A DNA stretch of 61,715 nucleotides, the filler included, from Rhabdomonas costata (taxonomy: Eukaryota), in assembly GCA_019059605.1 (NCBI GenBank). It is 14 parts of 14 records of this genome, joined end to end, with 100 filler letters (N's around TTAATTAATTAA, not from the genome) between each part and the next. Parts side by side here need not be neighbours in the genome. Positions count along the whole stretch, not along the records: positions 30,916 to 35,219 come from JAHMHO010000283.1; 13 more parts are not named here. The stretch is one strand, 5' to 3'. Under the pieces are notes generated by a model. That model saw nothing but the letters and a program-made list of their open reading frames with translations. It had not been told where the DNA came from and did no database searches. Positions 4,318-57,832 of the stretch are shown in pieces. Both the position numbers and the translations under genes were made by a program. The number at the start of each line of letters is the position of its first letter. The first letter of the stretch is position 1.

Positions 4318-4417
4318 NNNNNNNNNNNNNNNNNNNNNNNNNNNNNNNNNNNNNNNNNNNNTTAATTAATTAANNNNNNNNNNNNNNNNNNNNNNNNNNN
4401 NNNNNNNNNNNNNNNNN
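4318..4417. other. Artificial contig linker (44 N + TTAATTAATTAA + 44 N). Identical linkers at 8740-8839, 13156-13255, 17574-17673, 21998-22097, 26405-26504, 30816-30915, 35220-35319, 39631-39730, 44036-44135, 48430-48529, 52803-52902, 57326-57425
   Basis: The same 100-nt spacer with stops in all six frames recurs 13 times, and genes are truncated at the junctions. Confidence 0.99.
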
Positions 4418-5967
4418 GGGTTTTTGTTGGTGTTGGTGTTCGTTTTGGCGGAAGGGTTGGGCAGATTCGGTTTCGGGAAGGATTCGAGCTGCCGCGGGCC
4501 GGCGGCGGCCGGTGCGAGTGAGTGAGTGGTGGGAAGTTAGGTCGTGGAAATTCTTGTGAAACGTAACAGCAGAATGGGGAGTGGGTGGGTAACTCGTGCA
4601 GCCTGGTTTCGTTCCTCACACCAAACTTTCAACTCCCACCCCAGCTTTATGTCTTTGGGATGGGATGCATTTTTTCTGCAGAGAAGTGGAACCACCCAAA
4701 GAGAGGACTCTGCGAGGGAACGGAAGCCTGGGTCACGCTTCACAGCTGGTGTGCGCAGGGTGAGCCCTTTGTTCGATTTTGTTGTTTCCTTTTTTTTTTC
4801 TTTACTTTCGAGGATGGAAGAGGCGTAGAGCCCCAGACATGAAAGGATCACCGCAACCACCGCGAAAGTAAAGGTGAGCCCATGGGGGATGAACTGGGGA
4901 CCTGAGACATGGCAGTACATGTGACACGGAAACGTGTGAGGTGGCGGGGGCTGGAAAATAGATGCGGAGGGGAAGTTCGAATAAGAAAGAGCAGAGAAAT
5001 GGGCCAAGGAAGGATCTAAGAGGAGTGATAATAAGGCTATGGGCTGCAGCTGAGTCCCGAGCGAAGGAAGGCAGGTCGAGACATTCACGACACCATGGCT
5101 GACTCTGAGTTTGGCAAAACGCTCATGCGCATGAGCAAGGCCCCCCCTAACACCACCAAAGGATACTAGATAATAATTAGGCTTAAGGGCAGTTTATCGG
5201 CTGAACATGACATTCGTACAAGAAGGCAAGAAGGCAGAGCGGGCACTGTAGCAGAAGCTCACGGACAAAAAGAGAGCCGTGAGAAGCCTGCGTTATCCAC
5301 GAGTAAGAGAGATTTTTTCGCAGCAACACCAAAGGATACTAGAGAATGTGGGAAATGCGGCACATGAACATTGTATTGAGCGTAACGGCAGTGCAGCGAC
5401 GGGAAACTCTAAATACAGATAGAGAGAGAGGAGGGGCGGGGCTTCACAGCAGTTTATCGGCCGAAAATGAGATTCGTAGAAGAAATTTTTGGAAAACTTT
5501 TGCAGGGGGTAAGGTGGCGATTCACGTGTCCCGAATTTTCAGATAAAAATTGCACACACACACACACCCCTCCCTCCAGATCAATGTCACTTTCGGCCAA
5601 TAAACTGCCTGGATTCCGAATAGTGTCGCATTACTACTCAGCTGAGTAGTTATTACTATTCACCCCCTGAGTAGCGATCACCATTCAGCTGAGTAGTGCA
5701 CTGAATGGTGATTCCGATAGTGTTGGCTTGAGGAGCGTCTGATATGGAGGGGAACTGTCCTCTTCTTTTCGTACATATCGATCTTACCCGAAATTGGAAT
5801 GCCTTTGGGAGCGGTTTTGGAGAATTCCGGGAACCTTGCGGAATCCCCTGTTTTAGTTGTGAGGATTTTTGGGGACGAAACCGCATCCTGCGTGCACGCG
5901 GATGCCTGACTTTCCCGGACCTCACTTACTGCATTTCGTTTTATAGTTTGTCAACCTCAACCCGAAG

Positions 5968-8646
5968 ATGAAGGGCGCGAACATCGAAATTCTTGGGGCT
6001 GGCCACTTGGCTCGGAACACCACCAACCGGTGGGGCTCGGTGTCCCTGTCCCACAGCGTGCTGGGAACGTGCCCCTCTCCGGTGGCCTTTGGGGTGATGG
6101 CCAAGGCCACCGATGCTCTGATTGGGTTCAGCACTCCCGTTCCTGTGGGGCAGCCATTCAGCAAAGCGAAGGCGTTCTACGTCTTCCTGAAGAATGGGTC
6201 GAAGGTTTTCCGGGGCGAAGGGCAGCAGGACCACACTGAAAAGTACGGCGACAAGTGGGACGCCGAGGACATTGTTGCCGCGGTGCTGGACTGCCGGAAG
6301 AAAACCATCTCCTTCTGGGTGAACGGCGAGGACCAGGGGGTGGCCTTCTCCCGTGTGGACCTGTGTGAGTCCCTGGTGCCGTACCTCGCGGTGCAGGCGG
6401 GCACACTGCTGGCGATGACCTCAGGCCCTGCGCTGGGAGAGGGCGTGCTTTGGCTGACGGAGGCCCTGCCTCACCTCCAGCAGCACCCCTCCTTCGTGCA
6501 GCCCGCTCCCCGGACCATCCGTGTCAACCGAAGGTGAGCCTCCTCGTCCCCTCTCGCCCCCGCCCCTTCCCTTCCTCGGGAGTTTCCCATTTTAATGCGG
6601 GAGAGAGAGGTGGTGGCCAGGTTTTTGTTTTGGGTTTTTTCATTACGGCCAGGCTCTTTTCTTTCACCCAAACGTTGTGCACCGGTTTGCCTGGTAATTT
6701 GTTTTGTGAAAAGGTTGCCTATGTCCTCTTAGAGTTGTGGTTTTTTGCTTGCGATATTGCCTCCGTCCCCCAGCCCTCCGCGTAACCCGTTGAGCTGGCG
6801 TTTCCCACGGCAATTCCCAAAGAAGCCGTGTGGCAGGCCACGCTCCCGTCTCCCATGCATGGCACTGTACTCGGCGATTTCTTTCTTTTATAGCACAGCG
6901 AGGAGTAGGGGCTGATAGTACGCGCTTTCTGTGTTGTGGTTTGGTCTTGAAAAGCTGTGCCCCACCGGTGGAGGCCTTGTTTCGGAAGGCGGACGAGGGA
7001 ACGCGGCGGAAGTTTCTGGAGCTGGTGGAGCAGCGGATTGACGGCGAGGACTGCTGCCTGATGGGAGGCGAGAGGTGCATCGAGGTGGTGGACGTGTGGA
7101 CGGTATTCAACCCAATGCTGCAGGAGCAGTACGAGCGGCACCGCGGGCTGAAAGAGATCTATGCCTTCCACGGGACTGCAGCGGAGAATCTTGTTGCGAT
7201 CTGTCAGCAGGGATACTCTCCGGACTGCCGGTACGTCAACGCGTACGGGGTGGGCACCTACACGGCGAAGAACCCGATGGTCTCTGTGGGGTACTGCAAA
7301 GGGGACTGTTACATGGTGCTGAACCGTGCGAAGCTGCTGGAGGACAGAGGCAGCTGTGGGGACGTGTGGGTGCCAGGCTGCAAGTGAGCATCTGTTTCTG
7401 CTTGTTTTGCTTCTTCCCCCTCACGCCACACGCTCGGGTGTCGATATGGGTGGATATTACGGGGAGCAAACCTGCGTGCAAGTCTGCGATGTTTTGCATC
7501 GCACAGCAAGTGAAATTCCTTGCCGCTGCCAAATTTTGTTTTGACAAGACGTCAACTGGAATAGGATGCACGTTCACAGGGAATGTGAGGGAAGTTGCAG
7601 GGTAGTGTGCATTTCATTGCAAAGCGTTGCAAACCTTCCCGCCCATGCGGTCTTTCGGTTGTTGTTGAGTCTGATAGGCACGGTGTGCGCGTCTCGTCTT
7701 TTGTGTTGCCTTCGCAAGCAGGGGCGATGACATGGATGGGGTAGCGCGTTGTTGTGAGAGGCAGTTGGTGCCGCGTTTTGTTCGGGCATGCCGTACTGAT
7801 TCGAGTGTGTTGTGGTTGCACTTGCATTTTCTCTCTCTCTCTCTCTCTCTTTCTCTTTCTTTTTTCTGATTCAGGTATTACGTGGTGAGGGATGTGACGC
7901 GCCTTTTGCCGTGCGCGGTGCTGGTGTTCCGGCTCCCGGGGCAGCCCCTGCGGCGTGTGCTGGACCTGGAGCAGAGGGTGCTGGGGCTGGAGGTGCAGCT
8001 TCTTGTGGACACGGGGATCGTTTCGCACCAGAAGTACGATCGCACCGCGGCCTCCGCTGTGCTTTGTGAGCGGGCCCATCGGAGCTGCACCATGACAGAG
8101 AAGTCCACCACAAAGGTAACTCCGTGCGACTGGAGCGCTGCAGGGCTGTTTAGGTTGTGGAGCATCTGGACATGTGGTGAGGAAGAGCGGCATTTTTTTT
8201 GAGTTGTTGCCACTGACGGTAAGGCGCCGACGTTCTGGTCGGCTTCTTCATCTTTTTCATGTTTCTGATATGGAGTGCAATCTGCGCCGAGGATTACGAT
8301 GCTCTGGCAAGTTCCAAGTTTCCAGAAGCTTCCTCTCTCTCTCTCATTCGTTCTCGTTCTCTCTCTGTTCTTCACAGATCGCCATTGGGTTCTTTGGAGC
8401 TTCCGTCTCCGAGGAGGAGATCTGGCAGGTTCTTGCGCAGCATCTGCCTGAGCTCTCGCGGGACTGCATGGAGGAGTATTCGATTGATTTTGAGGGCATG
8501 CGGTTCCGCATCCTGGTGGCCCAGCTGAAGAAGCCCCTGCTGAGAAGCGCTGTGCTTCAGATGGAGGAGCGGCTGAAGAGGGCTCCCCTGTGGGTGGATG
8601 ACGTACAGCTCTTCCAGGAGAAGAAGAACGCGCAGCCCTGCCCCCG
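5968..8646 (+). CDS. SPRY/B30.2 domain + PARP-family (mono-)ADP-ribosyltransferase + RRM-like domain protein, 3' truncated. Exons 5968-6533, 6955-7383, 7875-8115, 8378-~8646
   Basis: SPRY signature DIVAAVLDCRKKTISFWVNGEDQGVAF. ART motifs AFHGT, AYGVGTYTAKNPMVSVGY and KYYVVRDVTRLLPCAVLVF. All three GT-AG introns are phase-consistent (2, 2, 0). Confidence 0.85.
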
Positions 8647-8962
8647 GGCGATCTGTGAAGAACAGAGAGAGAACGAGAACGAATGAGAGAGAGAGAGGAG
8701 AGAGGAAAGTTCTGCAAAATGGTATACACAAGAGCACACNNNNNNNNNNNNNNNNNNNNNNNNNNNNNNNNNNNNNNNNNNNNTTAATTAATTAANNNNN
8801 NNNNNNNNNNNNNNNNNNNNNNNNNNNNNNNNNNNNNNNTGTGGTGGTTGCGCACCAACGAGATCACGCAGTCCTGCTGCACCCCCGCACATCAAATAGC
8901 TCGAGGCCTTCTGACCAAAGGGGACTCACGAAAAGGGTGGGGAGAGCGACCTCCACGGTAAC

Positions 8963-11731
8963 CAAGATTTGTCCCATCGCTGGGGTGCAGCAGGACTGCG
9001 TGATCTCGTTGGTGCGCATCCACCGCGCCAGCTGGCCCGGGGTGGCGATGGTGTCCTGGGTCGGGATGCAGATCGTGGCTCCCAGGAACAGAGGGGTGAA
9101 GATGTCCCGCTGCAGCGGGTCGTGGGCAATCCCGCTGCACATCGCGAAGCGGTCCTCGCTGGCCATCCCAAACCGCTGCGACATCCACGGGTAGAAGGCC
9201 GTCAGCGGGCTGTGCTTGCCCATGACCTGAAAAAGCAGTGGGCAGAGAAATCAAACCACTCACACAAAGAGGATGTCAAATAAATCCCATAAATCAATGG
9301 GACCCAGCCAACTCATCTCGAGGGCGACCCCAGCAGCGCAAGAATTCTGAGGGAGAGGTTGGCCCTGCAAAAAGTCGATTGCCCCCAGCCGTTCGAAGTG
9401 AAGATGAATTGCTGCGCACTTTGGTAGTCGGATTCGTGCGGTTGGCGACCTTTTCTCTTTAGTGCCGGAGGGCCTGCAATACGAGAAAATTGTCCCCAGA
9501 GGCACCGCACTCAGGCGTACCGCCTGTCAGCGCCATAGCACACCAAATATTGTGCAGTGTTTTGGCCATGATCAGAGCAGAGGCCTGTTAAATGAACTAG
9601 ATGGATGATTGGCAAGTGAAGGAAGCACACCCCCTTCGGGACCCCGGTGGAGCCAGAGGTGAAGGTCACCACTGCAGTGTCCGTTGGGGACACCGTCACG
9701 CTGGGCATGGCCGAAGAGCAGTTCTCGAGGAGCTTGGAGAGGGCCTCCGAGGCGGGCTCCGCCACGCTGTGGTTGGACTTCAGACGCAACCCTGCGCACA
9801 TAAGCAAGTGATATGCCTTCCTCACAGGCGAAGCAAGCCGTAAAAAAAACTGACCATGACCCTCCCTTGTCATCACGTTCTTGGGCATTCTTTCTTTTTC
9901 CGGCTCCTCTCTCTCTCTCTTACCTTCTACGTTTTTCCTGCTTCTCTCTATTATGACGCTCTTGCGGCCTGTGAACCGTCACGGCCATCGCTGTGTACAA
10001 CCCACTTTGGTTGCAAACATGCAAAAGAGTTTGTGTCTTTCTTCCCATTGTCTTACCCTGCACACTGGAAAACGAAAGTTTGCAAAGAAAAACTTCCTTT
10101 CGGTGGAGTTGCAAATAAACCCCTGCACAATTGTAACTGTGGGATCATATAGCAAGAATACCGCACCTCAAGAACCACCACTCCACCTCAAAACGTGAGT
10201 CTCAGTGTTCGCACAGTGTTTGCAAGCACGCAAGCGAGCGAGAGCTTATCATCACAAATCGGTAAACCTTTCCAAAAAGCAAATCAATCTCGCACACATT
10301 CAAGAAAAACGGGACAACAGCTATATGGCACGATACGGAGGGAAACCAAAACCAAAGAGCCGGACCCTTCAGGAAAGTCAGCAGGTCCTCCGGCGGAGTG
10401 CCCGCGGCAGCCACCTGGAGCCAGCCCTTGGGCTGCGCGATCCGCATGCACAGGATGATCCGCTCCGAAGGGTATGCTTTGTTTATACGGGTGGATTGGT
10501 GGGCAGCACGCGTACCCCGTTTACAAGAAAATTAGGACCACAGAACAGCACATGAAACGCCAAATCTCTTCAGTTTTTCGGGCATCGTCTGCATCGACAT
10601 TATTTTCGAAGACCACGGCTTGTTAATAATATTCGGTTTCTTTCCTCGTAGGGCCTTATTCCATTCCATCTCATTCCCCAAGCCAGGCGACCTTCTTCCC
10701 TGTGCCTACATCCCCACCAAAGCCACAGAACTCCGATCCCTGAATGCCCCGCAGAGAATGATTGTTAAGCAGAGTTCAGCAAAGCAGAGGCACAGCGAAA
10801 ACAATGGTTGGACAGCCAAGTACCTGCAAAGGCGGTGAGTTTGGAAAGTGATATAAAAAATAGGGAAAGGGTACGACTCCATCCAACTCCGTGGTGGTCG
10901 TGGTGGTGAGGAGGGAGATGCCTGGGTCCATCATGGAATAAGCCGCGCCAGCCTTGAACACCGCGAGGATGGCCAGGATAACGGCGGGCGAGCGCGCGCC
11001 ATAGAGCCCAACCACGTCCCCGGGGGCGATCCCGTCCCGGATCAGCCGGTCCGCCAGCTGCGACGACAGCTTGTCCAGATCCCCGTAACTCACCGTCTGG
11101 TCGTTGTAGGAAATCGCTGTCCGCTGCGGCAAAAAAAAGAGGTCTAAAAGCAACGCGCCACACCAACGAGGATCCCCACATTTCTAGCGCAACCCATGAG
11201 GAGCTTATCATACGAAAAATGAGAAAGGAAGAGCCAAGAGAACAAGCGAAAACGAAATACGGGCACACAAAACCACAACTCCACCAAGTCCAAGATTGCC
11301 CTAAATTCTGCGAAATTGGCATTGCCGTTCCATTACACGGTTAATGGCGAAAATGCAATCAGCTGTGCTTGCGGGGCAGGCACACAGACGACCCCATGTT
11401 GAGAAGCGCCCAAAGAAATAGTGTACGTTAATCCCCGGCCGCACACCTCGGGGTGCTTCTCGGCGTTCTGGTGGAAGACCTGGTGAATCGCCCCGGCCCA
11501 CTCCGTGTCCTGTGGCGCAGTGGTGTTGGGAAGAACCTCCCGAGCCTTCTCGGTCACCAAGCTGTAACGGTAGATCCCGGAGATCGCCACCCAGACCAGT
11601 CGGGTGGCCAGCAGGACGTACTGCTGCACCAAGTCCTGGGCAAGGGCCTCGGTAAACAGCGCGGTGTGGTAGGCCAGCTGCACCGAGGTGTCCTTCACGT
11701 GCAACACCAGCTCGTAAGGACAGCGGTTCTC
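8963..11731 (-). CDS. LYS2: L-aminoadipate reductase (Lys2-type NRPS-like enzyme), internal part covering the adenylation domain. Exons ~11731-11446, ~11123-10922, 10476-~10367, ~9791-9631, ~9226-8963
   Basis: The spliced product contains GAIHQVFHQNAEKHPE, KAGAAYSMMDPAYPSER, VTFTSGSTGVPKGVMGKH and SGIAHDPLQRDIFTPLFLGA...TPGQLARWM...TPAMGQIL. These closely match fungal Lys2 motifs. Confidence 0.9.
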
Positions 11732-13669
11732 CTTTGAAAGCAAGCCACAGTGTATCACCATGGTGCACTTTGCAAGCCAGACAATTTTGAGAGCTGGGTC
11801 ACCTGGAAGAAAGCAGCATATGAAAGTTCAGAAAGTGTGGACCTGACCTCAAAAGCAAGAGGCAAGAGTAGAGGATCAAAGGAAGAGATCAAAGCAGTAA
11901 CAACCAAGATGTTGTTGAAACCCAGTTATTTCACCACCCGTTTCAGCTTCCAAGTCCAAAAATGCGTTGCACTTTCGTTTGTGACTTTTCTGAGAGGCGG
12001 ACAAGATTGGTTTGTTTTCACCTCATTAAATGGAAAATGCCAAGCGAGATTTGTGGAAGCCACAATCGGGGGGAACCAAATCAACACGCCAACGCAGGGC
12101 AATCCAAGCACACAGGATAAGAACTTAGGCCATTTCATATGGGGGGAAGCGTTTTAAACGGTATAACGCCGTTATTGGGTTGAGGCCGTGTAAAAGTGCA
12201 GATGCATACCACGGGGACGCACGGAGGGCGCATCCAATGGCCAGCCTTTCCTCCTGGATGTCAGCTGAACGGCCTTCAGGGCTGGAGCTGCTGTCCATTT
12301 AGAGATGGCGTCAGATGTCGCAACCGAAAACCGTCACAGAGGAGAAGCAGCACCCAGGGAAACCAAACTTACCCGAATGCCAAAGAGGCAAGGGCAGAGC
12401 AAGATAAGAAAGGGGAAGAAAATCCGCTAAAAAAGGCACATGCGAGGTACAGCGGCGCTCGCCCCAATGCGTATGTGCGCTTGGGGGGCTATTACGAAAG
12501 CGCGATTTTAGATTTTTCGAGCGTTTTTCCAAGGACTCTGTCTATTGTGTGCATCGCTTACTATTCTTTCTTCCTGGCATTTCGGCAGATGGTGCGCAGG
12601 GGGTTGTTCAGTTTCCCTTTGAGTGCCGAGGCGAAGGTTCTACGGCTCTACCCTGCTCGTAAGGAAAAGAACGAGACGTTTATGGAGCACCCCATCGGTC
12701 GGACGCACCGACATCCTCTCAAGCTTAGCAAAAGCAGTATCCACAAGTTGCCAAAAATCTGGAAGGGTGCCAACAGAATTCTATGATGCAAAACAAGGGC
12801 AGAGGTGCGCGCAAAGATAGAGAGCTCAAAAGCCCTCAACACAGAGCACAAAGCATGCTATGATTCGCGGTAGTGCAGCCACACAGAGCGCAAGGAGCTG
12901 GCTCGGTGTCCTGTCACTGTCAGCGAAGAAGAATTCACACCCCCACAGCAGAAGACCCCAAAACACGCAGGCAAACAACAGTGATCCGGCAAACATGCGG
13001 ATGGACTCGACTCCAACACAAAACCCATAACGAGTCTCATAAACATAGCTTCCTATGGTTCCTTAAGCAGCAGAAGAGTGCGACAAAGGTAAGGAATACA
13101 CAAAACCGAGGAAGCTTCAGGGCACACAACGCAAAGCAGCACAAAGCTGGCGCCTNNNNNNNNNNNNNNNNNNNNNNNNNNNNNNNNNNNNNNNNNNNNT
13201 TAATTAATTAANNNNNNNNNNNNNNNNNNNNNNNNNNNNNNNNNNNNNNNNNNNNTGTGGTGGGGCTGACCCGTCCATGAAAATTCGAAGCAAAATTTGG
13301 ATCTCGAGGGTTTCTCATAATGTTTTATCCAGCGGAAGAGGGAGAGCCCATAAGGAGATGCGCAGGGGTAGTATTGGTTGTAGCCGGATGGGCGCCGCTC
13401 CACTCGTGACCGGCTGCGGCTTTCCGAGAGGTCATCTCCAACTAGTGGACATGTGGCCCTAAGTTCTTTGTCTACAATGTTACCTGCATTGGAAAGACAA
13501 GCAAAGCTTGCCAGATAATGGCACAACTTGTTGCTGCCCGACCTGGCAGATATGACGACAATACGGACAAAAATGATTCTGAACGCAAGTTGGGATGGAG
13601 AAGAAAATGTATTAAAGACGTGCCCACTACAGGCCAGGCCAAAAGGGCTCCGCGAACTAAGCACGGGGA

Positions 13670-16600
13670 TTGAAAACTCGAGGACGGCTCGGGGAAAGGA
13701 GGCAGCGCTATGCCAGAGAGTGGCCATTATAGTCACTCGTGCGGCGCGCAGTGCAGGACCTGGATTGCCCTCCCAAGTGGAGGTGCCTGCAACGGACAGC
13801 TGCCTCTCCCCCCCGGCGCAGCTCTCGGAGTCCATCTGGCTGAGGTCGTCATCTCCGCTCTCCCGGCTGCGGTCGGAGTCCGGCCCAGGCACCACCACGG
13901 CCCCGCTGACGGAGCGCTGCTCGTGCTCGTCGCGGCGGAGCAGAAGGCGCCGGATGGCACTGTCCAGCAGGGCCTGACCCCCAGGGCAAATAGAGAAACT
14001 GAGGATCGGCGAGATGATGAAAAAGTCGTTAAAGGCTCATGGTCACATTCCCGCCTCACCCACTCGCTCCTGCGGCCGCGAAGGTGGCCTTATCTACTTG
14101 AAGCCCACCTTCAGCTAAGGGCCCAGATACTGCTCTCATCTCATCTCAGAAACCACGAAAGCTAAATCACTGTACTCACCCCGCCCACGTACCCGCTCCT
14201 GGTGCCGGCCGCAGAATGTCGTGCAGTGGACCTGAATGCGGCGCCTCAGGGCGTCCAGCCCAAGGTTTTCGTACTCTTGACTCTCCTGAGAGGGCATCGC
14301 GGGCGAGGAACCGGAGGGTGGAACACGAACGAAAGCTGAATAAACTAGAATCCACAGGAAGCGATACGCGCACAGCAAAGTAGCAGCTGTAGCTCCCGGC
14401 ATATCGGTTTCATAAGAATTCTTGCTGGGTGGCAAGTTACGTGGCGCCGAAGCCTGGCCTTTTTCAGCACACCTTGGCCTCACGTGGGAAACAGCTGCCT
14501 CACCTGACCATGGCAGTGAGCACACACTGAAAAGATGGGGCGAAATCGCACTTTGCACTTGGAGGGCGTTGAAAAGAGGGTTTCCTTTTGCAAGCCCAAC
14601 GATGCACCAGAGAAAGGCACCTGCACGGTGTACACGCTGAGCTTCGCAGACTGGCCCTTCATCTTGTACGCCGTGGGAAGCTTCTGGAACATGAACTTCC
14701 CCCCGCAGTTCGCCGTGGTGGCCTCGTCACACAGGAAGGTGCTGCGCGTCTGCTCGCACAGCTGCATCAGTCGGCAGGCCAGGTTGACGGTGTCCCCCAG
14801 GATGTCAAAGGCCTTCCTCTTCTCCGAGCCCACAATCCCGCAGAAGGCATTGCCGGTCGCAACACCTAGTAAGGAACAAAGAAATGGAAAGAGAAAAAGC
14901 AAACCAAAACCTTCGCACAAGCACAAGCGCACCAGAAAAAAACAAAAAAGCCAACACCAATGAATGAAAGCTAGGAGCATCTTCCCTTGGACCAGTCCAT
15001 GGAAATGAAACCTGGGAGTCATATCGAGCAAGGAGCCCAGAGGGGGGTCTTCCTTGCGACTTCTTTGCTGCTCTGGCTCGGTTGTCGAAAAACCAGGTGT
15101 GAAATTTGCAGCAGCAGCTTCTGTGACCGTGACCACATATACATCATGGTGGTTTTTTCCTTTTTTTTTTTTGGTTTTTGCGAAAACTTTTATGTAATTG
15201 CAAAAAAGAAAGACCGACCCTAGCAAGGACCTCAATGGGACAATAAATCCGTTTGGGTTGAATGAGAGCACAATGTCCCGTTCTGCTGTTAACACAAACA
15301 CAAACCGCTGCAAGTCCGGGAACCGTGGGCCCAGGGACTTTCCAACCTCGTGCTCTGAACCTCCGCAAGAAGCAAGCAGCAACGTGCTCGAACTCCTGGA
15401 ACATAATCGCGCCAAAACGTTTTTTCTTGAAAGTATACAACCCATGGTGAGCAAACACACCGATACGGCAGCTCATGTTGGGGTTGATTTCCGGCGTGGC
15501 GAGCATCTGGATCACGCTTTGGATCGCTGGAATCGCCGGGGTGGTCTGGGTCTGCAGCCCAAACACGGCCACCAGGTGCAGGCCCTTGTCATCCTGCATC
15601 AGCTGCAGCACCTCCCCGTCGTTTTGGGTGACAATCTGATGAAAGACAGAGCGCAATAAAAAGACTGAACAGATATCTCTACCCCCAATCCTTTCCTCAC
15701 CTCAGCAAAACGTTTCATTCGAATGCCAATGACATTAAGACTTCTCCACCATTATACCGACATGCTTCAAAGTGACAAAGCTGGAAAGTTTTACACACAT
15801 GGGGGTTCGGGGGAGGGGTTGTCACCTCCAGAGCAGCGGCGCCGAACTCCTTGACATCCTCGGCAGCGCTGTATTCCAGCTCGGGCTGCCCCAAGAACAA
15901 CACCGTGAGGAACCTGAAGCGTGCACCCCCCAGAGTTCCGTTCCGAGGTTCTGAATTTTCCAGGAAGGATGCCATTCACAGGACATGCCCTGACATCCAG
16001 ATAACGGAAAATGGGACAACCACAATCGCTTTCCTATACCGGAAGAAAGCACAAGATGAGATCGCACTCCAAATCTCAAATCCTCGAACTTGGAGCAGCC
16101 ACAGACCGGGAGATTTTCCCTGCAGTGCCACAGATAATGGATGGTGCTACGAACGAGTCCACTCTCTTTCTACTTTCATGGGCTCACCAAGACTGGGCTC
16201 CCTGAGGCATTCCCTTCGTGAGAAAGCGACTGGATCTAACTGAGAACTTCCTTCCGTGAAGTTGATGCACACTTGGGCACACGCCAGTGAAAAAAACGTG
16301 AAGAAGCATCTGAACCGCTGCAAGGCCAGGGTGGAGGTGGGCTGCCCAGCGCCCCCTGAGGTGGCCCCAATGTGATCCACCAGGATGCGGGGGAGAAACT
16401 CTCCTAGCAGCTTCTGCATGGGCGTGGGCCAGCCCTGTGTGGAATGGAAGGTGGTGTGAATCCAGCCGAACAGGTACAAACCAACAACAAACCCCATTCC
16501 GCCTCGTCAACGGGTGACTCCATTCTGATGGCTGAGCAATGCGGCCAAGAATGTTCTCAAGTTCGGCCAAAGTTCGAATTTCCCGCGTAGTACGTTTTCC

Positions 16601-30915: not shown

Positions 30916-31590
30916 TGTGGGGGTTTTGGTAGAGACAGGGTGCATTGTGTGGTCGGGGATGTCTCCAGGCGTGAAGAGGCAGACAGGGTGATTGCCGAGG
31001 TGCTGGGGAAGTTTGGGCGGCTGGATATCCTTGTGAACAACGCTGGGGTTGAGGGGGAGCTCGGGCCGGTCGCTGCCCTGACCGATGATGCTCTCAGGCG
31101 CGTTTTTGAGGTGAACGTGTACAGTCAGTTCTATCTCTGCAGGGCGGCGTTGCCCCACTTCGTGGCGCGGTTTGCGAAGGACCGGCCGGAACTCACCGGG
31201 AGCATCGTTGTGGTGTCCAGCGTGGCGGGGAAGGAAGGGATGCCCGGGATGGGTGCCTACTGTGCCACCAACTGGGCCCGGCTGGGACTAATGAAGACCC
31301 TCGCCGTGGAGCTTGCGGGGATCCATGTCACCGTGAACGCGCTTTGCCCGGGGTCAGTTCGGACGCCCATGCTGGAGCGTTTCCTGGGGAAGGCCACTGG
31401 TAGTGGTGGGAGTGGGGTGGACCAGGGGGAGCTGTTTCGGTCCTTGGTGGAGACCTGGATTCCAATGAAGCGGGTGCAGAGTGTGGAGGATATGGGCCAG
31501 GCCGTGGTGTTCATGACCTCAATGCCGAACTTCACAGGGCAGGAAGTGGTGGTGGACGGGGGCCATTTGGCAACTTGCATCCCCAAGTGA
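30916..31590 (+). CDS. Classical short-chain dehydrogenase/reductase (SDR), 5' truncated, intronless over the visible part
   Basis: GDVS, GRLDILVNNAGV, GSIVVVSSVAG, YCATN (YxxxK position), VTVNALCPGSVRTPM, TGQEVVVDGG; stop TGA at 31588-31590. Confidence 0.93.
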   Translation, partial: CGGFGRDRVHCVVGDVSRREEADRVIAEVLGKFGRLDILVNNAGVEGELGPVAALTDDALRRVFEVNVYSQFYLCRAALPHFVARFAKDRPELTGSIVVVSSVAGKEGMPGMGAYCATNWARLGLMKTLAVELAGIHVTVNALCPGSVRTPMLERFLGKATGSGGSGVDQGELFRSLVETWIPMKRVQSVEDMGQAVVFMTSMPNFTGQEVVVDGGHLATCIPK

Positions 31591-32054
31591 AAGGACAAAC
31601 CATGGCGTTGGACACCAACTTTTTTCTGGGGGAAACAAGCCGAATTATCACTGAGGTTAGCACGGTCGAGGTCTCACCAAGCAGCTGAAACCGTCGTGTG
31701 CTTGGGGCAACTGGACAGATCTTAGTCCAGTTGGTAGTGCTGGGTCTCTGTGTCAAAAGGTGCTCCCCAAAAGCTCCCATATATAGGATGGTAACACGCG
31801 GTCGGATTGTTCCCTTGAGCTCAAACCTGTCAAAGACCTACATTCGTAATTTTTCAGCGGTCAATAAATGGAAATTTTTAATAAGGGCCCACTGATGTCA
31901 TCCGCCTGAAGATGTCATCCGCCTCCTTTCACCGCCTGTGTCTCTCTTTGGTCAGATTGTTCTTTGTTCCCTAATCTAGCGATCTTCTGTGGTCTTGCTA
32001 ATCTTTATTCCACCTCCGTCCGTACCCCGTACATCCTCCGTCACCCTATAAAAA

Positions 32055-34135
32055 ATGCTTCGCTTTTGCCCTGTTGCGGCACTCTGCCTTGCCCGCCGTG
32101 GACTCTCGCAGCCCCTGAAGTTGTCCGTGTGCTCCCACGTTGTCTCGAGAAGTGGGGCAGGCGTGCTGTGGCTGCGGCCGGTGCGGAGCTACGGCAGTGG
32201 GGTGTTCGAAGGCCCCGGAGCCACCGCCCCACAGAAGCCCCCAGAGCTGTCGGACTTTGTCGAGCCCCTTCAAGGCGAGCACCAGGTTCCCCTCTAATGA
32301 AGCTAAGTGTCACCAGCGCCATCAGTGGAACTGGTCCACGCAGGGTTTGGGTGGTAGTGCGTGAAGCCTGGGATGCTACATCCTGGAATTCCTCGGCTTC
32401 GTCAGATGAACCCTGGTCGAGAAACACTGCCAATATTCCCTCATCTCAAACGATCCAAAGGTGTCCGATTGGAGGGGGGGCAGTTCCGCAGTTCCGAAAG
32501 ACCGTTGGCGTTTGTGGCACTTCGCTGTCAAAGTATTCAAATATGCCGGAAGCCCTTGTGTAGGATTTCCTGACACGCTCGGTGTGGGGATTCCAGGTGC
32601 GTGAGTGTGTGGTGGGTTGTATGTGTGTGTGGGGGTGCAGATCATTGAGTCAGCCCTTGGGGCGATGGAGGGCTACTGCATCGCCCTGCGAAGGGAGCTC
32701 AAGGAGGCCGACCAGAAGGACCTCGCCCTGTTTGTCACCTTTCTCAAGGAGTACGTCGACCAAAAGGTGCACCTACCCTAACTCACTCGGATTATGAGTT
32801 TCTCTGTTGCCCGAGAGGAAGACCTTCAAATGGACCTGTTGCATTTTTGGTGGTGGTGGTGGTGGGGAGGGGTTGTTAAAACTGTAACACTATTAAGCGA
32901 TCCGAAATTTGAAGGCAAAAAAGTCGTCATTTGGGCCGCAGTGGCACAATAGACCCACCTCCGTGCTCGACAAATAACTTTGATGCTGTTTAACATTTGA
33001 GGCGATGTGGTAGTAGTGTACTTAATTTATTGTTGTAAATTCAAGGCTCTTGATTGACCTTCCTGCACGTCCCCGGCTCATCCGTTTGCTCTTGCCGCGC
33101 CGCGCCGCGGACTGTTCGCGCCGCGCCGCGCGCTGTTCCAGTCTAGCCCAGAGTTGCGCAGCTCCAAGCCCTTTCCTAACAGCGGCCTCTCCTCCACTAA
33201 CGGGCTCGCTCGCTTCCTATTTTACTAGTTCTTTCTTTTGAATTCTTCTCTTCTTCTTGCTGGGGCAGCACATCAAGAAGGAGGAGGGCATCCTGCTGCC
33301 AGCGCTGTCCGGCCGTCTTGCCGCGGGTGGAGTGCAGCAGCTGTACGCGGAACACAAGAAGATCCGCGAGGGCACAGCGAAGCTGGCCAGCTTGGTGCAG
33401 GCTTGGGACCGCAAGCCCGTGGTGAAGCACGGGCTCGACCTCCTCAAAACCATTCGCGTGCACATGGAGATGGAGGACCGCGGGCTCTTTCCTGTGGTGT
33501 GTATACGTATGCGGTTTGTTGACTGGGTGGGTGCCAAAGTTGGAGCATGGCTTATACGCTCAAATGAGTCTCTGCCGAGCAGCAACTCGACAAGTAGCGG
33601 CAGAATACTCGTCAATTCGGTATTCCCTGTAGGCAAAAAAGCCCGCCAACAAAGTAATGCCTCGTGCCGTGTGTCCGTTCGCTGCTGAACGACACTCGGC
33701 AAGTCGTTCGTGCCGAAGCAAGCCATCTCCACAACGAGGCATCTACTGGTGTAACAGGGGGAGTCCTGAGTTTGATGAGAGTATCAACGTTGACTTCGAG
33801 CTGATCCCGGTGCCTGATTATCTTAGTGGGACTACTTTTACCCTCCAACTTGAGCGTTATTGAAATTATCAAGCACAAGAAGAAATAATGTGAAACGAAA
33901 GTGAAAGGGGAATTCCAGGACACCAGTTGCTGTGTAGTGCAACAAAATGCAAGGCTTTTCGGTTTTCCGCCGCTCCTCACCGGGTGCGCAGGTGTGTAAC
34001 ACCGTCCCCTCGGCCGCGATTCCAGCGATCGCCGAGAAGTTTACCGCTGAGAATGAGCGGTGGAAGGCTCGCACCAAGGAGCTCGAGGACATGGCCTTGG
34101 TTTTGGTGAAGAAGTACATGCGATATGTCCCGTGA
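32055..34135 (+). CDS. Hemerythrin/HHE cation-binding domain protein with an N-terminal mitochondrial-type presequence. Complete, 242 aa. Exons 32055-32285, 32641-32766, 33269-33496, 33992-34135
   Basis: The spliced product reads MLRFCPVAALCLARRGLS...LQGEHQIIESALGAME...FVTFLKEYVDQKHIKKEEGILLPAL...LYAEHKKIRE...IRVHMEMEDRGLFPV...KKYMRYVP*. It has three phase-0 GT-AG introns and two EH / HxxxE repeats. Confidence 0.88.
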
Positions 34136-34723
34136 GCTACTTGAGATGGCCGCACTTGGGGGTGTTGGCGGCTGTCGCCCGTCTGTGTGTGTGTGCACTT
34201 GGTTGCGCAAGGGAGAGTGTATCAACTTGCGTGTGCGCGGAGGCGCGTGTACGTCTATCTATCGGTGTGGTGTACAGCACTGCAACTTCTCTGCGGTATA
34301 TGGCGGGCCCTTGATTGCCAAGTTTGAAGATGCTTTCCGCTTCTTAAATAGGTGGGTTCCTCCGGCGACTTAAGGGAGCTGAACGATTTTTTTGCTGCGA
34401 CATCTGGACACTTTTTTTGGGGCGGGTCTCTTGATTCGGGCCAATTTTTTTCACTGAGATGATCCATTTTTAGGGGAGGCTACCCAGATGATGGCCAGGA
34501 TCCCATTATATATGGATTGCTTTACCGGAATCGTGGAAGGAAGTGGTGAGGAGAGCGGGCCAAACCCTCTCTGATGCGCTTCGGCTGTGCCCTGAAAAAG
34601 TTTGCGGGATCGATGGGTTAGGAAGGGAATTCAACCACCTGATCTGATACAGCGAGGTAACAATTTGGGCACACGTTCCGATCGTTCCAGTGCATCAATC
34701 ATTCCAATTTTATAGTGACTGAA

Positions 34724-35219
34724 ATGGATAAGGCACCAGATCTCCAGGCATCAGATCTCTCCAACCCCCTGGAAGCTGCCCCAGACCCTGCGGTTTCACC
34801 CGCGAGTGAAGTGGAACTGCGGCTTCAAGTCAGCCTGCTTCACACCGAGCTTGCCTCAGTGTATTCCGAAGTCGCCCGGCTTCACTCTTTGACCCGCGAG
34901 CTGAATGACCTGCGAGCTGAGCACGACCGACTGGAGAAGGAGAAGCGAGAAGTCGATCTGAAGAAGCAGCGGAGCGCGAATCTGGTTGCCGCGACCTGGC
35001 AGGAGATTCGTCAGCTTCAGGAGCAGGTCGCCGCATTGCGGCCTAGCCTGTTCAACCCACAACCCCCTTATGCTTGGAATCGGGCTCGCTTTGCCTTCAC
35101 TGGTGGCGGTGCTGGTGGAGGGGGCCCTCGGCCGAGCTTTCTGGTGCATTCCCCGCACTCTCCTTCGGATGTGGAGGCACTGGTGGAGGAGCTGATGGCC
35201 TGTCGCGGACGCTACAGCA
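34724..35219 (+). CDS. Coiled-coil hypothetical protein, 3' truncated
   Basis: The frame is open from ATG 34724 to the contig end, with a heptad-like LHTELASVYSEVARLHSLTRELNDLRAEHDRLEKEK segment. Confidence 0.65.
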
Positions 35220-53996: not shown

Positions 53997-55515
53997 CATC
54001 AAGGTTTGCTTTAGTGTTTTTCAGCATCCGGTTAGCCCGGGGTTGACAATAACTAGTATTGAGGGCTCTTCGTTGGAAAATTTAGTTTTCGATGTTTTAA
54101 CTGTGTTCTGCCTGGTGGATTTGAACCTGGTATCCCAGCGGCATAAATATGACCAGCCGTATCTCAAAAGTAATAGATAGGGGTAGATACACAATGAACA
54201 GGCCCAAAAGAAGCAAAGGCACCTCTAGGTAAACCCAGTTTTTTCACCCCCTTTCGAACCTTTTTCTTTTACGTCCGAAAATGATTTACAGTGCAAGTTT
54301 TTTTCATTTTTGAATTTTTGAGGTGTTGCAGACAATTTGATCATGGATTTTCGAAAGTGCTTGCAAGTAGTTGAGGAGCGGTGAGATCGAGGGCGAGTAG
54401 GCCACATCAGAGATGTTTGATGTGGCCTACTGTTGCCCAACAATCGGGCGAATAGGCGGCTGATGCAAAATTTGGAACACACGTAGCCTCTGATATTAGC
54501 TGTGTCCCAGGGGGGTTGCAGGGAGTCAAATGGGGCTGCCTTTTTCCTGCCGATATAGTTTCGGTGCGCACCACACGACGAAACCCCTCCTGAACATCAA
54601 TGTCCAACAAGTTACACCCCAGAGCTTAGAGAATGGTGAGCAACGAATTCCGATATGGAGTTTTTCCACAGTGGATGTCCGGTGTCTCTCTATCGCTGGC
54701 TTTTTGGTGTTGGATCCTCTTTTTACTATCAAGCCGTAATTCTTATCTTATGAAGTACCTTTGTGTGAGACGGGTGAGAGATTCTTTCTTCTAGCGCATT
54801 TTTTGGACCCCCTGTTGCAATTGGTTACTTTTTTCCTTCACAGGTCACCTCGGAATGGTTGTAGCATATATATCTTCAGCTGCACCTCGCGGCTCCAGCT
54901 GCATCTCGCGGCTTTCCTTCCTTGCTGCAACGGGTTGGAAATCTGGGCATCCTTTCAGTGCTGAAGAAGGGCTGTATATCATCCTGAACTTCTTCTTGTT
55001 TGTCATCGTGCCTTCGACTTGAAGACGCTAAGCTTTGTATTCACACTCTGCACATTGCCTGTGGTGCCTGTTAACGGTGGTAGGAAATCCAAAACCTGGC
55101 TGTGCTGTTGTCCATTCGTCGAGATTTATCGTGATTTTTTTGTCCGAAACTCCAGGCAGGACGGTTACTATCAGATGAAATTAAGCCCACCGTGTTTTCA
55201 CATTCTTGGGAAGAGAGTGAAGACGCGCTTTCAGAATAGGGCTTTGGTGTGACTTTCCTTGGGATTGCGATTACAATATATAACTCAAACTGTGAAGCGC
55301 AGTGCCTTGCGAATCGCGTTCTAGGTTCTAGGGATATGTGCCGGCAATTGCTGATATTGCAGAGACATACCGATTTCGGTGAAAATGGATAATAATTTTT
55401 GTTTTCTCTCTTTTTCAGATTGCTTTGGCATTTTTTGTTTTGCCGTTTTTCTCCCCCCTTTTTAGTACTGGTGCGTTCTTCTGTTTATTAGGCTCTGCGA
55501 TGAGTCGATAACCGA

Positions 55516-56559
55516 ATGAGTGGCAGCGAAGAGCCCGCTGCTGGTGCCCCCGAACTCTGCGCAACGCTCGTCGACATCACCACGCTGTTCACCCTCTCTC
55601 CTGAGCCCATCCGCGAGAGTGCCTGCAGCGCCCTTTACAGTGCCGAGCGCAAGCCCAGGCCTGCACCCCCTGCCGGCCCTTCCTCTGCTCCTGCTCCTTC
55701 GGGGGACCACTCCCCCGCCGCGGCGAACAGCACTTGTGGCGCGGCCTCCGATGACTCCTCGGTGACGGTCCGGGTGGTGTCCAAGCGAAGGAAGGGTGCG
55801 ATCCAGGCCGTTCAGGAGGAGCTGTGCATCCTCAGCCTGCTTGGGCTGCACCCCAATGTCCTGGGGGTTCTGGAGGTTCTGGAGGGGGACCAGAGCGTGT
55901 ACCTGGTGTGCCCCCGGGTGCACCCCGCCACCCTGGCCGACCGGGTGGCCACGGGCAGGGTGCCCACGGAGCGCCTGGCGCTGTTCCTGTTCCGGCAGAT
56001 GCTGCTCGCGGTGAGCCACCTGCACGCCCACGGCGTGATCCACCGCGACGTGGTCTCTCGCTTCCTCATGACGCGGAGCTGTGAGGGAAAGCGTGTTGGC
56101 CATGTTCCACTCTGCTAACCTTTCTTGAGCAAAAGAAAGGGAATGGGAATGATAAGTGCGGACGAGCGCTGAGGATCGCACGCCTACAAAGGGCATCGAT
56201 GATGCCGTGGAAGACGTATCCCAAGGCCGCCTGCACCACACCAGTGGGAAAAGAACGGGAGCCCATGGGTCAGATGCGGGATCTGGGGAATTAGGGAGGT
56301 GAGCCGAATAGAGGTCCTTCTCTTGGAAAGGTGGGTATTGTGGATTTTCGGTCGGATGTCCCGGATGTACTCCATTTTCTGGTGGCCCCTCTCACCGCAT
56401 TTTCGGCGCACAGAGGCCAGACAACATTCTGTTCTCGGACGACCGCGACTTCGCCACGCTGAAGCTCACGGGGTTCGACACTGCGATGCGGTGCAAGAAG
56501 GACGCCTCGGGGCACCCTGTGCTGCCGCAGGCCGCCCTATCGGGCGAGCGCTCCCCACG
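55516..56559 (+). CDS. CAMK-like protein kinase fold, probable pseudokinase, 3' incomplete. Exons 55516-56052 and 56414-~56559
   Basis: EELCILSLLGLHPNVLGVLEV, FRQMLLAVSHLHAHGVIHRDV|RPDNILF...LKLTGFD, joined by a phase-0 GT-AG intron. Confidence 0.85.
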
Positions 56560-56673
56560 GTACAGCGGAGGGAAGGAGCAGGAGCTCTCCACTCCACTGA
56601 CATTCCTTCACCCGCACCTTCGTGATGCGCACATATTTGGGAAAGACTGCGATTTTGCAGAGGCAACAAAACA

Positions 56674-56698
56674 CAGCAGCAGCAGCAACAACAACAGC

Positions 56699-56732
<34 letters not shown>
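56674..56732. repeat. (CAG)/(CAA)n trinucleotide microsatellite
   Basis: Directly visible; it abuts repeat family B. Confidence 0.95.
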
Positions 56733-56733
<1 letters not shown>

Positions 56734-56739
56734 GAATTG

Positions 56740-57062
56740 TTGCTGGCATACCGGCGTGTAGGCGGACTGTGTGCCAGCCTATAGTTCTTTCTCATATCAA
56801 AGCCCAGGCCCGATGTAAAGCCAGTGCAAAAGCAAAAGGTCCTTACAAGCCTGTGTAACCCAAAAAGACCAAAATCACCCCAAAATGGCCCTGAAATGGC
56901 CTCTAGCATGGCTCTAAACCGAAGCATTCTAGTCCACTTCAGTGCCAGCATGAAGCACTCCTGGGCTCTACCCTTAGGTATGCTAAGCAGGCCCGGCCGA
57001 AAGCTTAGGCTCAGTATGCAGGCCCGAAAAGGTCCGAAAAGTGCACCCCAGGCCCTTGAAAA
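56740..57062 (-). repeat. Dispersed repeat family B, longest copy
   Basis: Its reverse complement covers both 27702-27897 and 28880-29031. Confidence 0.85.
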
Positions 57063-57307: not shown

Positions 57308-57832
57308 TCTCAAAGAAAACCCACCNNNNNNNNNNNNNNNNNNNNNNNNNNNNNNNNNNNNNNNNNNNNTTAATTAATTAANNNNNNNNNNNNNNNNNNN
57401 NNNNNNNNNNNNNNNNNNNNNNNNNGTGTTGGGTGTGGTTGGGGTTTGGGGGGCAGATTTTGGTCCCAAGTGACGATGCACGACAAGCGAAGCATGCACA
57501 CTGGTATGGCCGGCAAGTAAGAAGCAAAACTCTCCGAGCGTTGTGTTTTCACAACCGCTTCACTCCTTTCTGGTGCTCAAAAACGGTCTGCCCCCAAATC
57601 CAATGCAATGCCACCCAATGCCTAGCAACACAGGCTTTGAGCGGACACAATCCCTGCCCGACATTATGATGGGGTGGGTCTTGGGGGGGGGGGTAACCGC
57701 TGGAAAGTCAAAACCTTTAAATGGGATGACGCTGTTCCATGGAGGATGGGGGTGCAATAAACGGGGTATTTCAATTCAACCGAAAACTTTCCGAAGATTG
57801 CCGATCACAAGAAGAGATACAAGGGCCACATA

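Follow-up and report, generated by a model that had tools for sequence, protein, structure and literature searches.

A four-exon gene of Rhabdomonas costata encodes a stand-alone hemerythrin-like protein with a presequence-like N-terminal extension

The question raised by the locus

Does a nuclear gene of the eukaryote Rhabdomonas costata encode a hemerythrin of the prokaryotic type and, if so, where did it come from, where in the cell would its product reside and what would it do there? The question is raised by a stretch of 61,715 nucleotides, filler included, from assembly GCA_019059605.1 (called the window throughout). A first reading of this DNA (the original prediction) proposed that positions 32055-34135 of the + strand carry a complete four-exon gene for such a protein, acquired laterally and provided with a mitochondrial-type presequence. 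By homology we find this to be a true eukaryotic gene, nuclear and spliced, whose product is, by profile and motif, a stand-alone hemerythrin-like protein of the HHE type. The gene was previously unannotated, and the assembly is fragmentary, the contig in question having 4.3 kb. The result is chiefly a gain in annotation.

Structure of the gene

The gene (32055-34135, + strand) has four exons and three GT-AG introns, all of phase 0, and specifies a product of 242 amino acids. Exon 1 (32055-32285, 77 codons) contains the start codon and encodes a segment resembling a presequence, then a conserved linker and the first part of helix 1 with the first metal ligand, H76; it ends at the donor CAG↓GTTCCC (arrows mark splice or cleavage points). 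An in-frame TAA (32049-32051) lies just 5' of its ATG. Intron 1 (32286-32640, 355 nt, GC 0.54) is followed by exon 2 (32641-32766, 42 codons), which encodes the remainder of helix 1 and helix 2 as far as the residues EYVDQK. Intron 2 (32767-33268) has 502 nt. Exon 3 (33269-33496, 76 codons, donor GTG↓GTGTGT) encodes five of the ligands and, after intron 3 (33497-33991, 495 nt), exon 4 (33992-34135, 47 codons plus TGA) adds two C-terminal helices, which also follow the helical bundle in bacterial homologues.

The model can be checked against P0001, an intron-free relative of 221 residues found in a protein search, which we have used as the orthologue reference. With exon 3 as the query, HMMER was run in full against 1.84 billion representative proteins and returned four matches at E <= 0.001, of which P0001 (E 5e-22) is the sole close one. 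The translations of exons 1 to 4 are colinear with it (61, 74, 63 and 70% identity) with zero gaps at the junctions, and the spliced protein is 70% identical to it across 204 amino acids. When P0001 is compared with the entire window by tblastn, the four matches obtained are the four exons (E 1e-14 to 9e-31); no paralogue is found elsewhere in the window. A second relative, the 58-residue fragment P0005, was obtained by a profile search (5.8-billion-protein index, 7355 candidates) and spans the junction of exons 3 and 4 without a break (...RGLFPVICNAV...). Because of the P0001 and P0005 alignments, the donor of exon 3 is placed at 33496↓GTGTGT, which gives 242 amino acids, and not at 33493. 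The complete four-exon gene of the original prediction thus stands, with exons that match P0001 from end to end.

Base composition agrees with a resident gene. The introns have a GC content of 0.50-0.54 compared with 0.62 for the coding sequence, and GC at third codon positions (GC3) is 0.79, a host-like value when set beside 0.75 for an exon of a short-chain dehydrogenase/reductase (SDR) gene on the same contig. Contaminating bacterial DNA was considered and is ruled out by the three spliceosomal introns together with this GC3. Intron 2 also includes a GC-rich unit of 21 bp (CGCGCCGCGCCGCGCACTGTT) in two tandem copies (33096-33138).

Family, metal ligands and fold

Exon 3 alone matches the Pfam profile PF01814 (hemerythrin HHE cation-binding domain) with 32.9 bits (E 1e-7; cut-off 25.3); exons 1, 2 and 4, taken singly, give no Pfam match. 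P0001 matches the same profile with 62.8 bits (E 5.6e-17) over positions 4-127 of 127. Both pass the cut-off in this HMMER check, and the four patterns on which the family assignment was originally made (L..EH..I...L, F...Y.D..H..KEE..L.P.L, GG......EH...R and HM..ED..LFP) are all present.

In an alignment with 27 bacterial homologues and P0006, a further relative described below, all the conserved metal columns are filled in the window protein, by four His and two Glu, and the PF01814 layout H ... HxxxE ... H ... HxxxE is reproduced. The first ligand, H76 (codon 32280-32282), is the 'EH' of helix 1 and occupies a conserved column of the 34-row alignment. H120 (33269-33271) and E124 (33281-33283) belong to the motif HIKKEE, H148 (33353-33355) is the 'EH' of helix 3, and H184 (33461-33463) and E188 (33473-33475) belong to HMEMED. 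All six codons are on the + strand. Judged from these alignment columns, the protein is expected to hold a di-iron centre, with H76, H120/E124, H148 and H184/E188 as its ligands.

The fold was modelled on the orthologue P0001 with AlphaFold2 and the 34-row alignment. This model has a predicted local distance difference test score (pLDDT) of 87.2 and a predicted template modelling score of 0.81; a single-sequence fold reached a pLDDT of only 42.9. It shows four long helices (residues 45-73, 81-110, 117-143 and 146-178) and, after them, two more at the C-terminus; the N-terminal part (residues 1-39) is disordered. Through this model of its orthologue, the window protein is expected to adopt the four-helix-bundle HHE fold.

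Comparison of the P0001 model with solved structures points to the same family. Foldseek ranks hemerythrin-like proteins first, but every E-value is above 0.1. With VIA-align the best matches, over about 150 residues, are PF0695 (3cax; Z 16.2, root-mean-square deviation 2.0, 151 residues aligned), NMB1532 (2p0n; Z 15.7) and an Rv2633c homologue (6q09; Z 13.7), followed by FBXL5 (Z 11.9). Generic helical bundles reach at most Z 11.5, so that the top three are clearly higher and FBXL5 barely so. For these three the identity is only 15-17%, and PF0695 has an additional domain. All three were solved by structural genomics; PF0695 and NMB1532 are described by their depositors as uncharacterised or of unknown function. 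When the PDB was searched by sequence alone, neither exon 3 nor P0001 retrieved a hemerythrin; such structures are found only with the family profile, which gives YtfE as the best match (E 1.2e-16), then PF0695 (4e-8), ScdA (9e-6), NMB1532 (2e-5) and DcrH (0.01).

Bacterial homologues and their gene neighbourhoods

Beyond the orthologues, the closest relative in the indexed collection is P0006, a protein of 191 amino acids (E 3.6e-11, 35% identity). It begins at the column of window residue 67 or thereabouts and is colinear with the window protein from there to the C-terminus. The Atlas clusters closest to it consist of bacterial hemerythrins of 185-197 amino acids (score 0.94), which serves as a lead only. 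A pattern scan of GTDB species genomes identified two loci, one in a metagenome-assembled genome (MAG) of the Elusimicrobia (L001:4001-4537) and one in a MAG of the Desulfobacterales (L002:4001-4537). Profile matches at E <= 1e-5 were then counted in sampled genomes of the two phyla concerned. They occur in 129 of 401 genomes from the phylum of the Desulfobacterales MAG and in two of 26 from that of the Elusimicrobia MAG, where nothing closer was gained. PF01814 is also present in archaeal control genomes (six of the 14 controls).

These bacterial stand-alone HHE proteins, generally of about 180-190 amino acids, are colinear with the whole of the mature window protein, down to the pair of helices that follows the bundle. 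They carry the same EH / H.xKEE / EH / H..KED motifs at 24-35% identity (24-32% for the MAG homologues). They differ in having no introns, no N-terminal extension and HH where the window protein has HI. The extension, of about 66 amino acids, has no bacterial counterpart: of the 33 bacterial open reading frame (ORF) rows, 28 measure 176-193 amino acids and begin at the same column as P0006, and none of the 33 has a credible leader. An apparent upstream 'extension' in one of them (L012) was considered as a bacterial leader and rejected, as it results from taking the ORF between one stop codon and the next. The likeness to stand-alone prokaryotic HHE proteins that was noted in the original prediction is therefore borne out by the nearest non-orthologous relatives, and the architecture, to judge from this colinearity, is that of a common bacterial stand-alone protein.

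The genes that flank the bacterial homologues were surveyed at 30 loci, using 77 of 108 flanking ORFs; distant ORFs, the shortest ORFs and one locus that nearly duplicates another (L011, compared with L010) were dropped. At eight of the 30 loci the homologue is adjoined by a gene for a flavodiiron protein, a hybrid-cluster protein, a NorB/haem-copper subunit or a YgbA_NO protein, and at four others by one for a ferritin, a rubrerythrin, a superoxide dismutase, Fur or an Fe-S (iron-sulphur) assembly protein. In the Desulfobacterales MAG the order is hcp - HHE - norB (L002:2338-7048; Prismane domain E 2.9e-171), which looks, from gene content, like a cluster for nitric oxide (NO) detoxification. 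Flavodiiron proteins flank the homologue at five more loci (L018, L021, L022, L023 and L032). This frequent association with NO/O2-stress genes supports a predicted role of the bacterial family in NO/O2 stress; the context as such has no meaning in the eukaryote.

Several of the bacterial homologues also give weak matches to NF053874 ('PA2171 family ribosome-binding persister protein'; 19-23 bits, cut-off 190). These may represent another functional branch of stand-alone HHE proteins.

Origin of the gene

Was the gene acquired from bacteria, as originally proposed, and how long ago? We have built a maximum-likelihood tree of 36 rows in which the eukaryotes are the window protein and P0001 (the fragment P0005 was left out). 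The two form a pair with 100/100 support, which falls within the bacterial sample as sister to L012 (87/86). This nesting is consistent with lateral acquisition; the branch that leads to the pair, however, is 5.1 changes per site long and the program flags a possible long-branch artefact. Lateral transfer into this eukaryotic lineage is, from these comparisons, no more than plausible.

We would place about even weight on the view that this was no recent, lineage-specific import, and that the gene either was transferred long ago or is of old eukaryotic descent and has since been lost in many lineages. The long stem branch itself is as expected for an old gene, as are three introns combined with host-like GC3, prokaryotic homologues that never exceed 35% identity, and the presence in at least two other organisms of orthologues that are 65-72% identical (the searches gave three eukaryotic holders). 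Against this view stands the patchiness of the distribution, which would suit a transfer into one small clade. The HMMER search of representative proteins with exon 3 returned a single orthologous cluster, the profile search of 5.8 billion proteins only P0001 and P0005 as orthologues, and two scans of Joint Genome Institute (JGI) metagenome contigs, one with P0001 and one with the conserved-linker alignment, no relative. The position of the pair within the bacterial sample points the same way, subject to the long-branch warning. Other searches were equally sparing: a scan of prokaryotic genome contigs gave no relative of P0001, a word-index search with P0001 returned only itself, and one with exon 3 for longer proteins gave 308 candidates, none of them significant.

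A joint transfer with the neighbouring SDR gene was also considered. An SDR gene also adjoins the homologue at one bacterial locus (L024), but it shares only 27% identity with the SDR of the window and the idea was rejected. The one other eukaryote-like hemerythrin available for comparison, P0002 (470 amino acids), consists of two identical hemerythrin-domain units of about 235 amino acids in tandem; it is very distant from the window protein.

The N-terminal extension and its possible destination

The extension can be divided into two parts. The first is a presequence-like segment (residues 1-46, MLRFCPVAALCLARRGL...WLRPVRSY; 32055-32192, + strand) with a net charge of +7 and no Asp or Glu. 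The second is a Gly/Pro-rich linker (residues 47-66, GSGVFEGPGATAPQKPPELS; 32193-32252, + strand) that is restricted to the eukaryotic proteins. Residues 1-50 include six Arg, one Lys, eight Leu, seven Ser plus Thr and four Ala; the first acidic residue is E52. This count agrees with the original description of the first 50 or so residues as rich in Arg, Leu, Ser and Ala, devoid of acidic residues and ending in VRSY↓G. The Eisenberg moment reaches 0.64 at residues 13-23. Processing sites of the R-2/R-3 type (MPP/Icp55) are known from mitochondrial presequences, and by eye R44-S-Y46↓G47 fits this MPP-type motif; 'VR.Y' is shared by P0001 (VRHY↓P). Residues 1-38 cannot be aligned with the first 17 residues of P0001, similarity beginning at W39, and the part of the P0001 model that matches residues 1-46 is disordered (pLDDT below 50).

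Residues 1 to about 46 would most likely be a cleavable import presequence. The mitochondrial matrix is our leading guess for the compartment, with cleavage expected around VRS↓Y↓G, and the next 20 or so residues would be kept as a conserved linker of the mature protein. No other part of the window protein is as well conserved in P0001 as the linker (FEGPGATAPQK.PEL), which is almost invariant between the two, has no equivalent in bacteria and is disordered in the model. We tentatively read it as a linking or docking element that the mature protein retains. Among open-access papers and preprints we found no literature on organelle-targeted stand-alone HHE proteins in protists.

Two features weigh against a mitochondrial presequence and leave this part of the original prediction plausible only, in spite of the fit of composition and VRSY motif. 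One is the N-terminus of P0001 as recorded, whose 25 residues before the 'Y' include D, E and E and are not presequence-like. The other is the uncharged hydrophobic run FCPVAALCLA at residues 4-13, which comes directly after MLR, resembles the core of a signal peptide and is followed by RR and an S/R-rich remainder; such an arrangement would also suit a signal peptide joined to a transit peptide.

The same protein could be directed to a plastid, by a signal and transit peptide (for a complex plastid) or by a transit peptide in the style of green algae, and we consider this rather unlikely. In its favour, C11 and A13 stand at -3/-1 of a possible signal-peptidase site, the subsequent 33 residues are S/R-rich without any acidic residue, and the splice acceptors are G-rich (...GCAG↓) and have no pyrimidine tract. 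However, no Phe-type transit-peptide start follows the putative signal cleavage, VRSY↓G suits mitochondrial R-2/R-3 processing as generally known for MPP/Icp55 sites, P0001 has no hydrophobic N-terminal run, and no plastid gene or other lineage marker turned up in the window.

A second alternative, which we hold to be similarly improbable, is that the extension is no targeting signal at all and that the protein is cytosolic. Conservation with P0001 does begin seven residues ahead of the proposed cleavage, at W39, and the short N-terminus of P0001 has three acidic residues. A charge of +7 with no negative charge in 50 residues, on the other hand, would be unusual for a cytosolic N-terminus, and a segment that cannot be aligned between orthologues otherwise 70% identical is typical of targeting peptides.

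Possible function

Among characterised proteins the nearest relative is Escherichia coli YtfE/RIC (TIGR03652; 5fnn, 7bhc), the best profile match among the solved structures. In PMC9268430, YtfE/RIC proteins are described as di-iron proteins that are induced by nitrosative stress and protect or repair Fe-S enzymes. YtfE itself is presented there as a di-iron four-helix bundle linked to NO and H2O2 damage of Fe-S clusters, with H84, H105, H129, E133, H160, H204 and E208 as ligands (PMC9268430). Six ligand positions correspond between this protein and ours; in the profile alignment H120/E124, H148 and H184/E188 fall on H129/E133, H160 and H204/E208 of YtfE. The same source lists in its Table 1 an 18-kDa RIC of Neisseria and eukaryotic cases in Trichomonas and Cryptococcus (PMC9268430). 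The latter, RIC1 and RIC2 of Trichomonas vaginalis and a RIC-like protein of Cryptococcus, are precedents for bacterial-type di-iron hemerythrin-like stress proteins in eukaryotes, and are described as RIC homologues of about 28 kDa (PMC9268430).

The reading that we favour, at about an even chance, is that of a stand-alone HHE di-iron protein with an import leader that takes part in NO- or peroxide-linked protection of Fe-S proteins. By analogy with YtfE/RIC and the bacterial gene neighbourhoods, the mature protein would most likely react with NO or peroxide at its di-iron site. Such a reaction would protect the Fe-S enzymes of its compartment, or re-supply iron to them.

To the two features of the N-terminus given above must be added several others that weigh against this reading. 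The function is carried over from relatives at 24-35% identity, and the bacterial sample was drawn from two phyla only. The bundle of the window protein is taken from a model of P0001, 70% identical to it, and the ligands are assigned from alignment columns. NCBIfam does not class the protein as a RIC: P0001 scores 20.7 bits, and exon 3 12.9 bits, against a RIC cut-off of 204.7 (NCBIfam TIGR03652/NF008221). Neither exon 1 nor P0001 has the ScdA_N domain in Pfam, the N-terminal 66 residues being disordered or linker, and two-domain YtfE superposes poorly overall with the P0001 model (template-modelling score about 0.29). H105 of YtfE, a fifth His that this protein draws in from elsewhere (PMC9268430), lies outside the aligned part and has no evident counterpart. 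Finally, where bacteria have the second His of the HH pair, the window protein has Ile121, P0001 has Tyr and P0006 has Asn; the metal site may differ accordingly. The original prediction was right to note HI in place of the usual pair (HIKKEE compared with the bacterial consensus HHGKEE). Its suggestion that one ligand may be lost is reasonable, though not decisive: the YtfE motif aligned there, H129-M-M-K-E133, is likewise without a second His.

A different role, which we regard as doubtful, would be that of an iron, O2 or NO sensor like FBXL5, BRUTUS and DcrH, in which the metal or redox state alters stability or partner binding by way of the linker or the C-terminal helices. The eukaryote-only linker, best conserved and yet disordered, is what a docking motif would be. 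The hemerythrin domain of FBXL5 does match structurally, just above the generic bundles, and DcrH gives its weak profile match. In addition, a Symbiodinium hemerythrin-like protein, which may or may not be related to this subfamily, is reported as an interactor of RACK1 in a yeast two-hybrid screen (PMC8070245). However, FBXL5 and BRUTUS domains (of animals and plants), which are eukaryotic HHE di-iron bundles, are N-terminal modules of large E3 ligases, and the window protein stands alone, without F-box, leucine-rich repeat (LRR) or zinc finger. Pfam finds no output domain (F-box, LRR, CHY/RING, MCP or GGDEF) in the exons or in P0001. By sequence profile the protein is much closer to YtfE than to DcrH, and FBXL5 is not among the 30 sequences at E up to 1. 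It is also enzymes that reduce NO or O2, and not regulators, that adjoin the bacterial homologues at the eight loci mentioned.

An O2 carrier or store like the classical hemerythrins or bacteriohemerythrins is very improbable: the window protein shares the fold and the Pfam family, but helix 3 reads H148-K-K-I-R152 and so has no HxxxH, the profile for O2-binding hemerythrins, TIGR02481, gives 18.6 bits against a cut-off of 51.75, and these hemerythrins are a monophyletic subgroup of the HHE domain (PMC4919030). The O2 buffer included in the original prediction is accordingly the weakest of the functions offered there.

The contig and the rest of the window

The neighbourhood of the gene must be read with care. 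The window contains 13 identical joints (44 N, TTAATTAATTAA, 44 N; at 4318-4417, 8740-8839, 13156-13255 ... 57326-57425), whose linker stops all six reading frames and which divide it into 14 pieces of 4273-4423 nt with a GC content of 0.50-0.555. Because contigs of about 4.3 kb have been strung together here, genes that seem to be neighbours are mostly not so in reality, and ORFs that reach a joint are cut genes. The true contig of the hemerythrin-like gene has 4304 nt (30916-35219) and is bounded by artificial joints at both ends. Its sole real upstream neighbour, a separate gene that ends 465 nt away, is the SDR gene, of which the 3' part is present (30916-31590, + strand; adh_short_C2, E 5.9e-40). 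Downstream, a gene start with a coiled-coil-like ORF that matches no Pfam family (34724-35219, + strand) is cut by the end of the contig. Nothing on the contig bears, for or against, on the low-oxygen lifestyle suggested originally, which is thus left unsupported.

Pfam analysis of 90 further ORFs in the window gave generic eukaryotic domains only. The kinase, GNAT, SPRY, PARP, cyclase and AMP-binding exons among them are on other contigs and are uninformative for the neighbourhood of the hemerythrin-like gene. No Rfam family and no tRNA were found in the window, and the dinoflagellate spliced-leader motif gave 0 matches in it with up to three mismatches.

A few of these other genes may be recorded for annotation purposes. 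A protein-kinase gene (55504-56760) has a GT-AG intron of about 360 nt (56054-56413) that splits HRDV↓RPDNILF, and downstream of this intron is a (CAA)24 repeat (56664-56733), which is an Asn run in one frame. SPRY and PARP catalytic-domain exons (5947-7387) occur on one strand of one contig piece and may be one gene. Exons of an AMP-binding enzyme (8867-11183, - strand) and an adenylate/guanylate-cyclase exon (14483-15472, - strand) are on different pieces and do not necessarily belong to one gene.

Significance

The protein is a modest addition to a known family and no new kind of system. Its domain is very common, but the eukaryotic subfamily to which it belongs is rare: the protein collections searched contain a single full-length relative and a single fragment.

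A more specific hypothesis, speculative and in our opinion unlikely in its entirety, is that a small clade of eukaryotes imports a bacterial-type, single-domain di-iron protein into its mitochondria (or plastids) to take on the task of YtfE/RIC there, where a pared-down 4-His/2-Glu site together with the strictly conserved docking linker, an invention of eukaryotes, would serve to release NO from damaged Fe-S enzymes or re-supply them with iron. If true, this would constitute an organellar route of Fe-S repair outside the canonical ISC/SUF machinery. If the protein is imported and active, a bacterial-style di-iron stress or repair factor would join the tool-kit with which protists maintain Fe-S proteins in their organelles, and the gene would provide a clean example of how a prokaryote-type gene acquires introns, the codon usage of its host and a leader for targeting.

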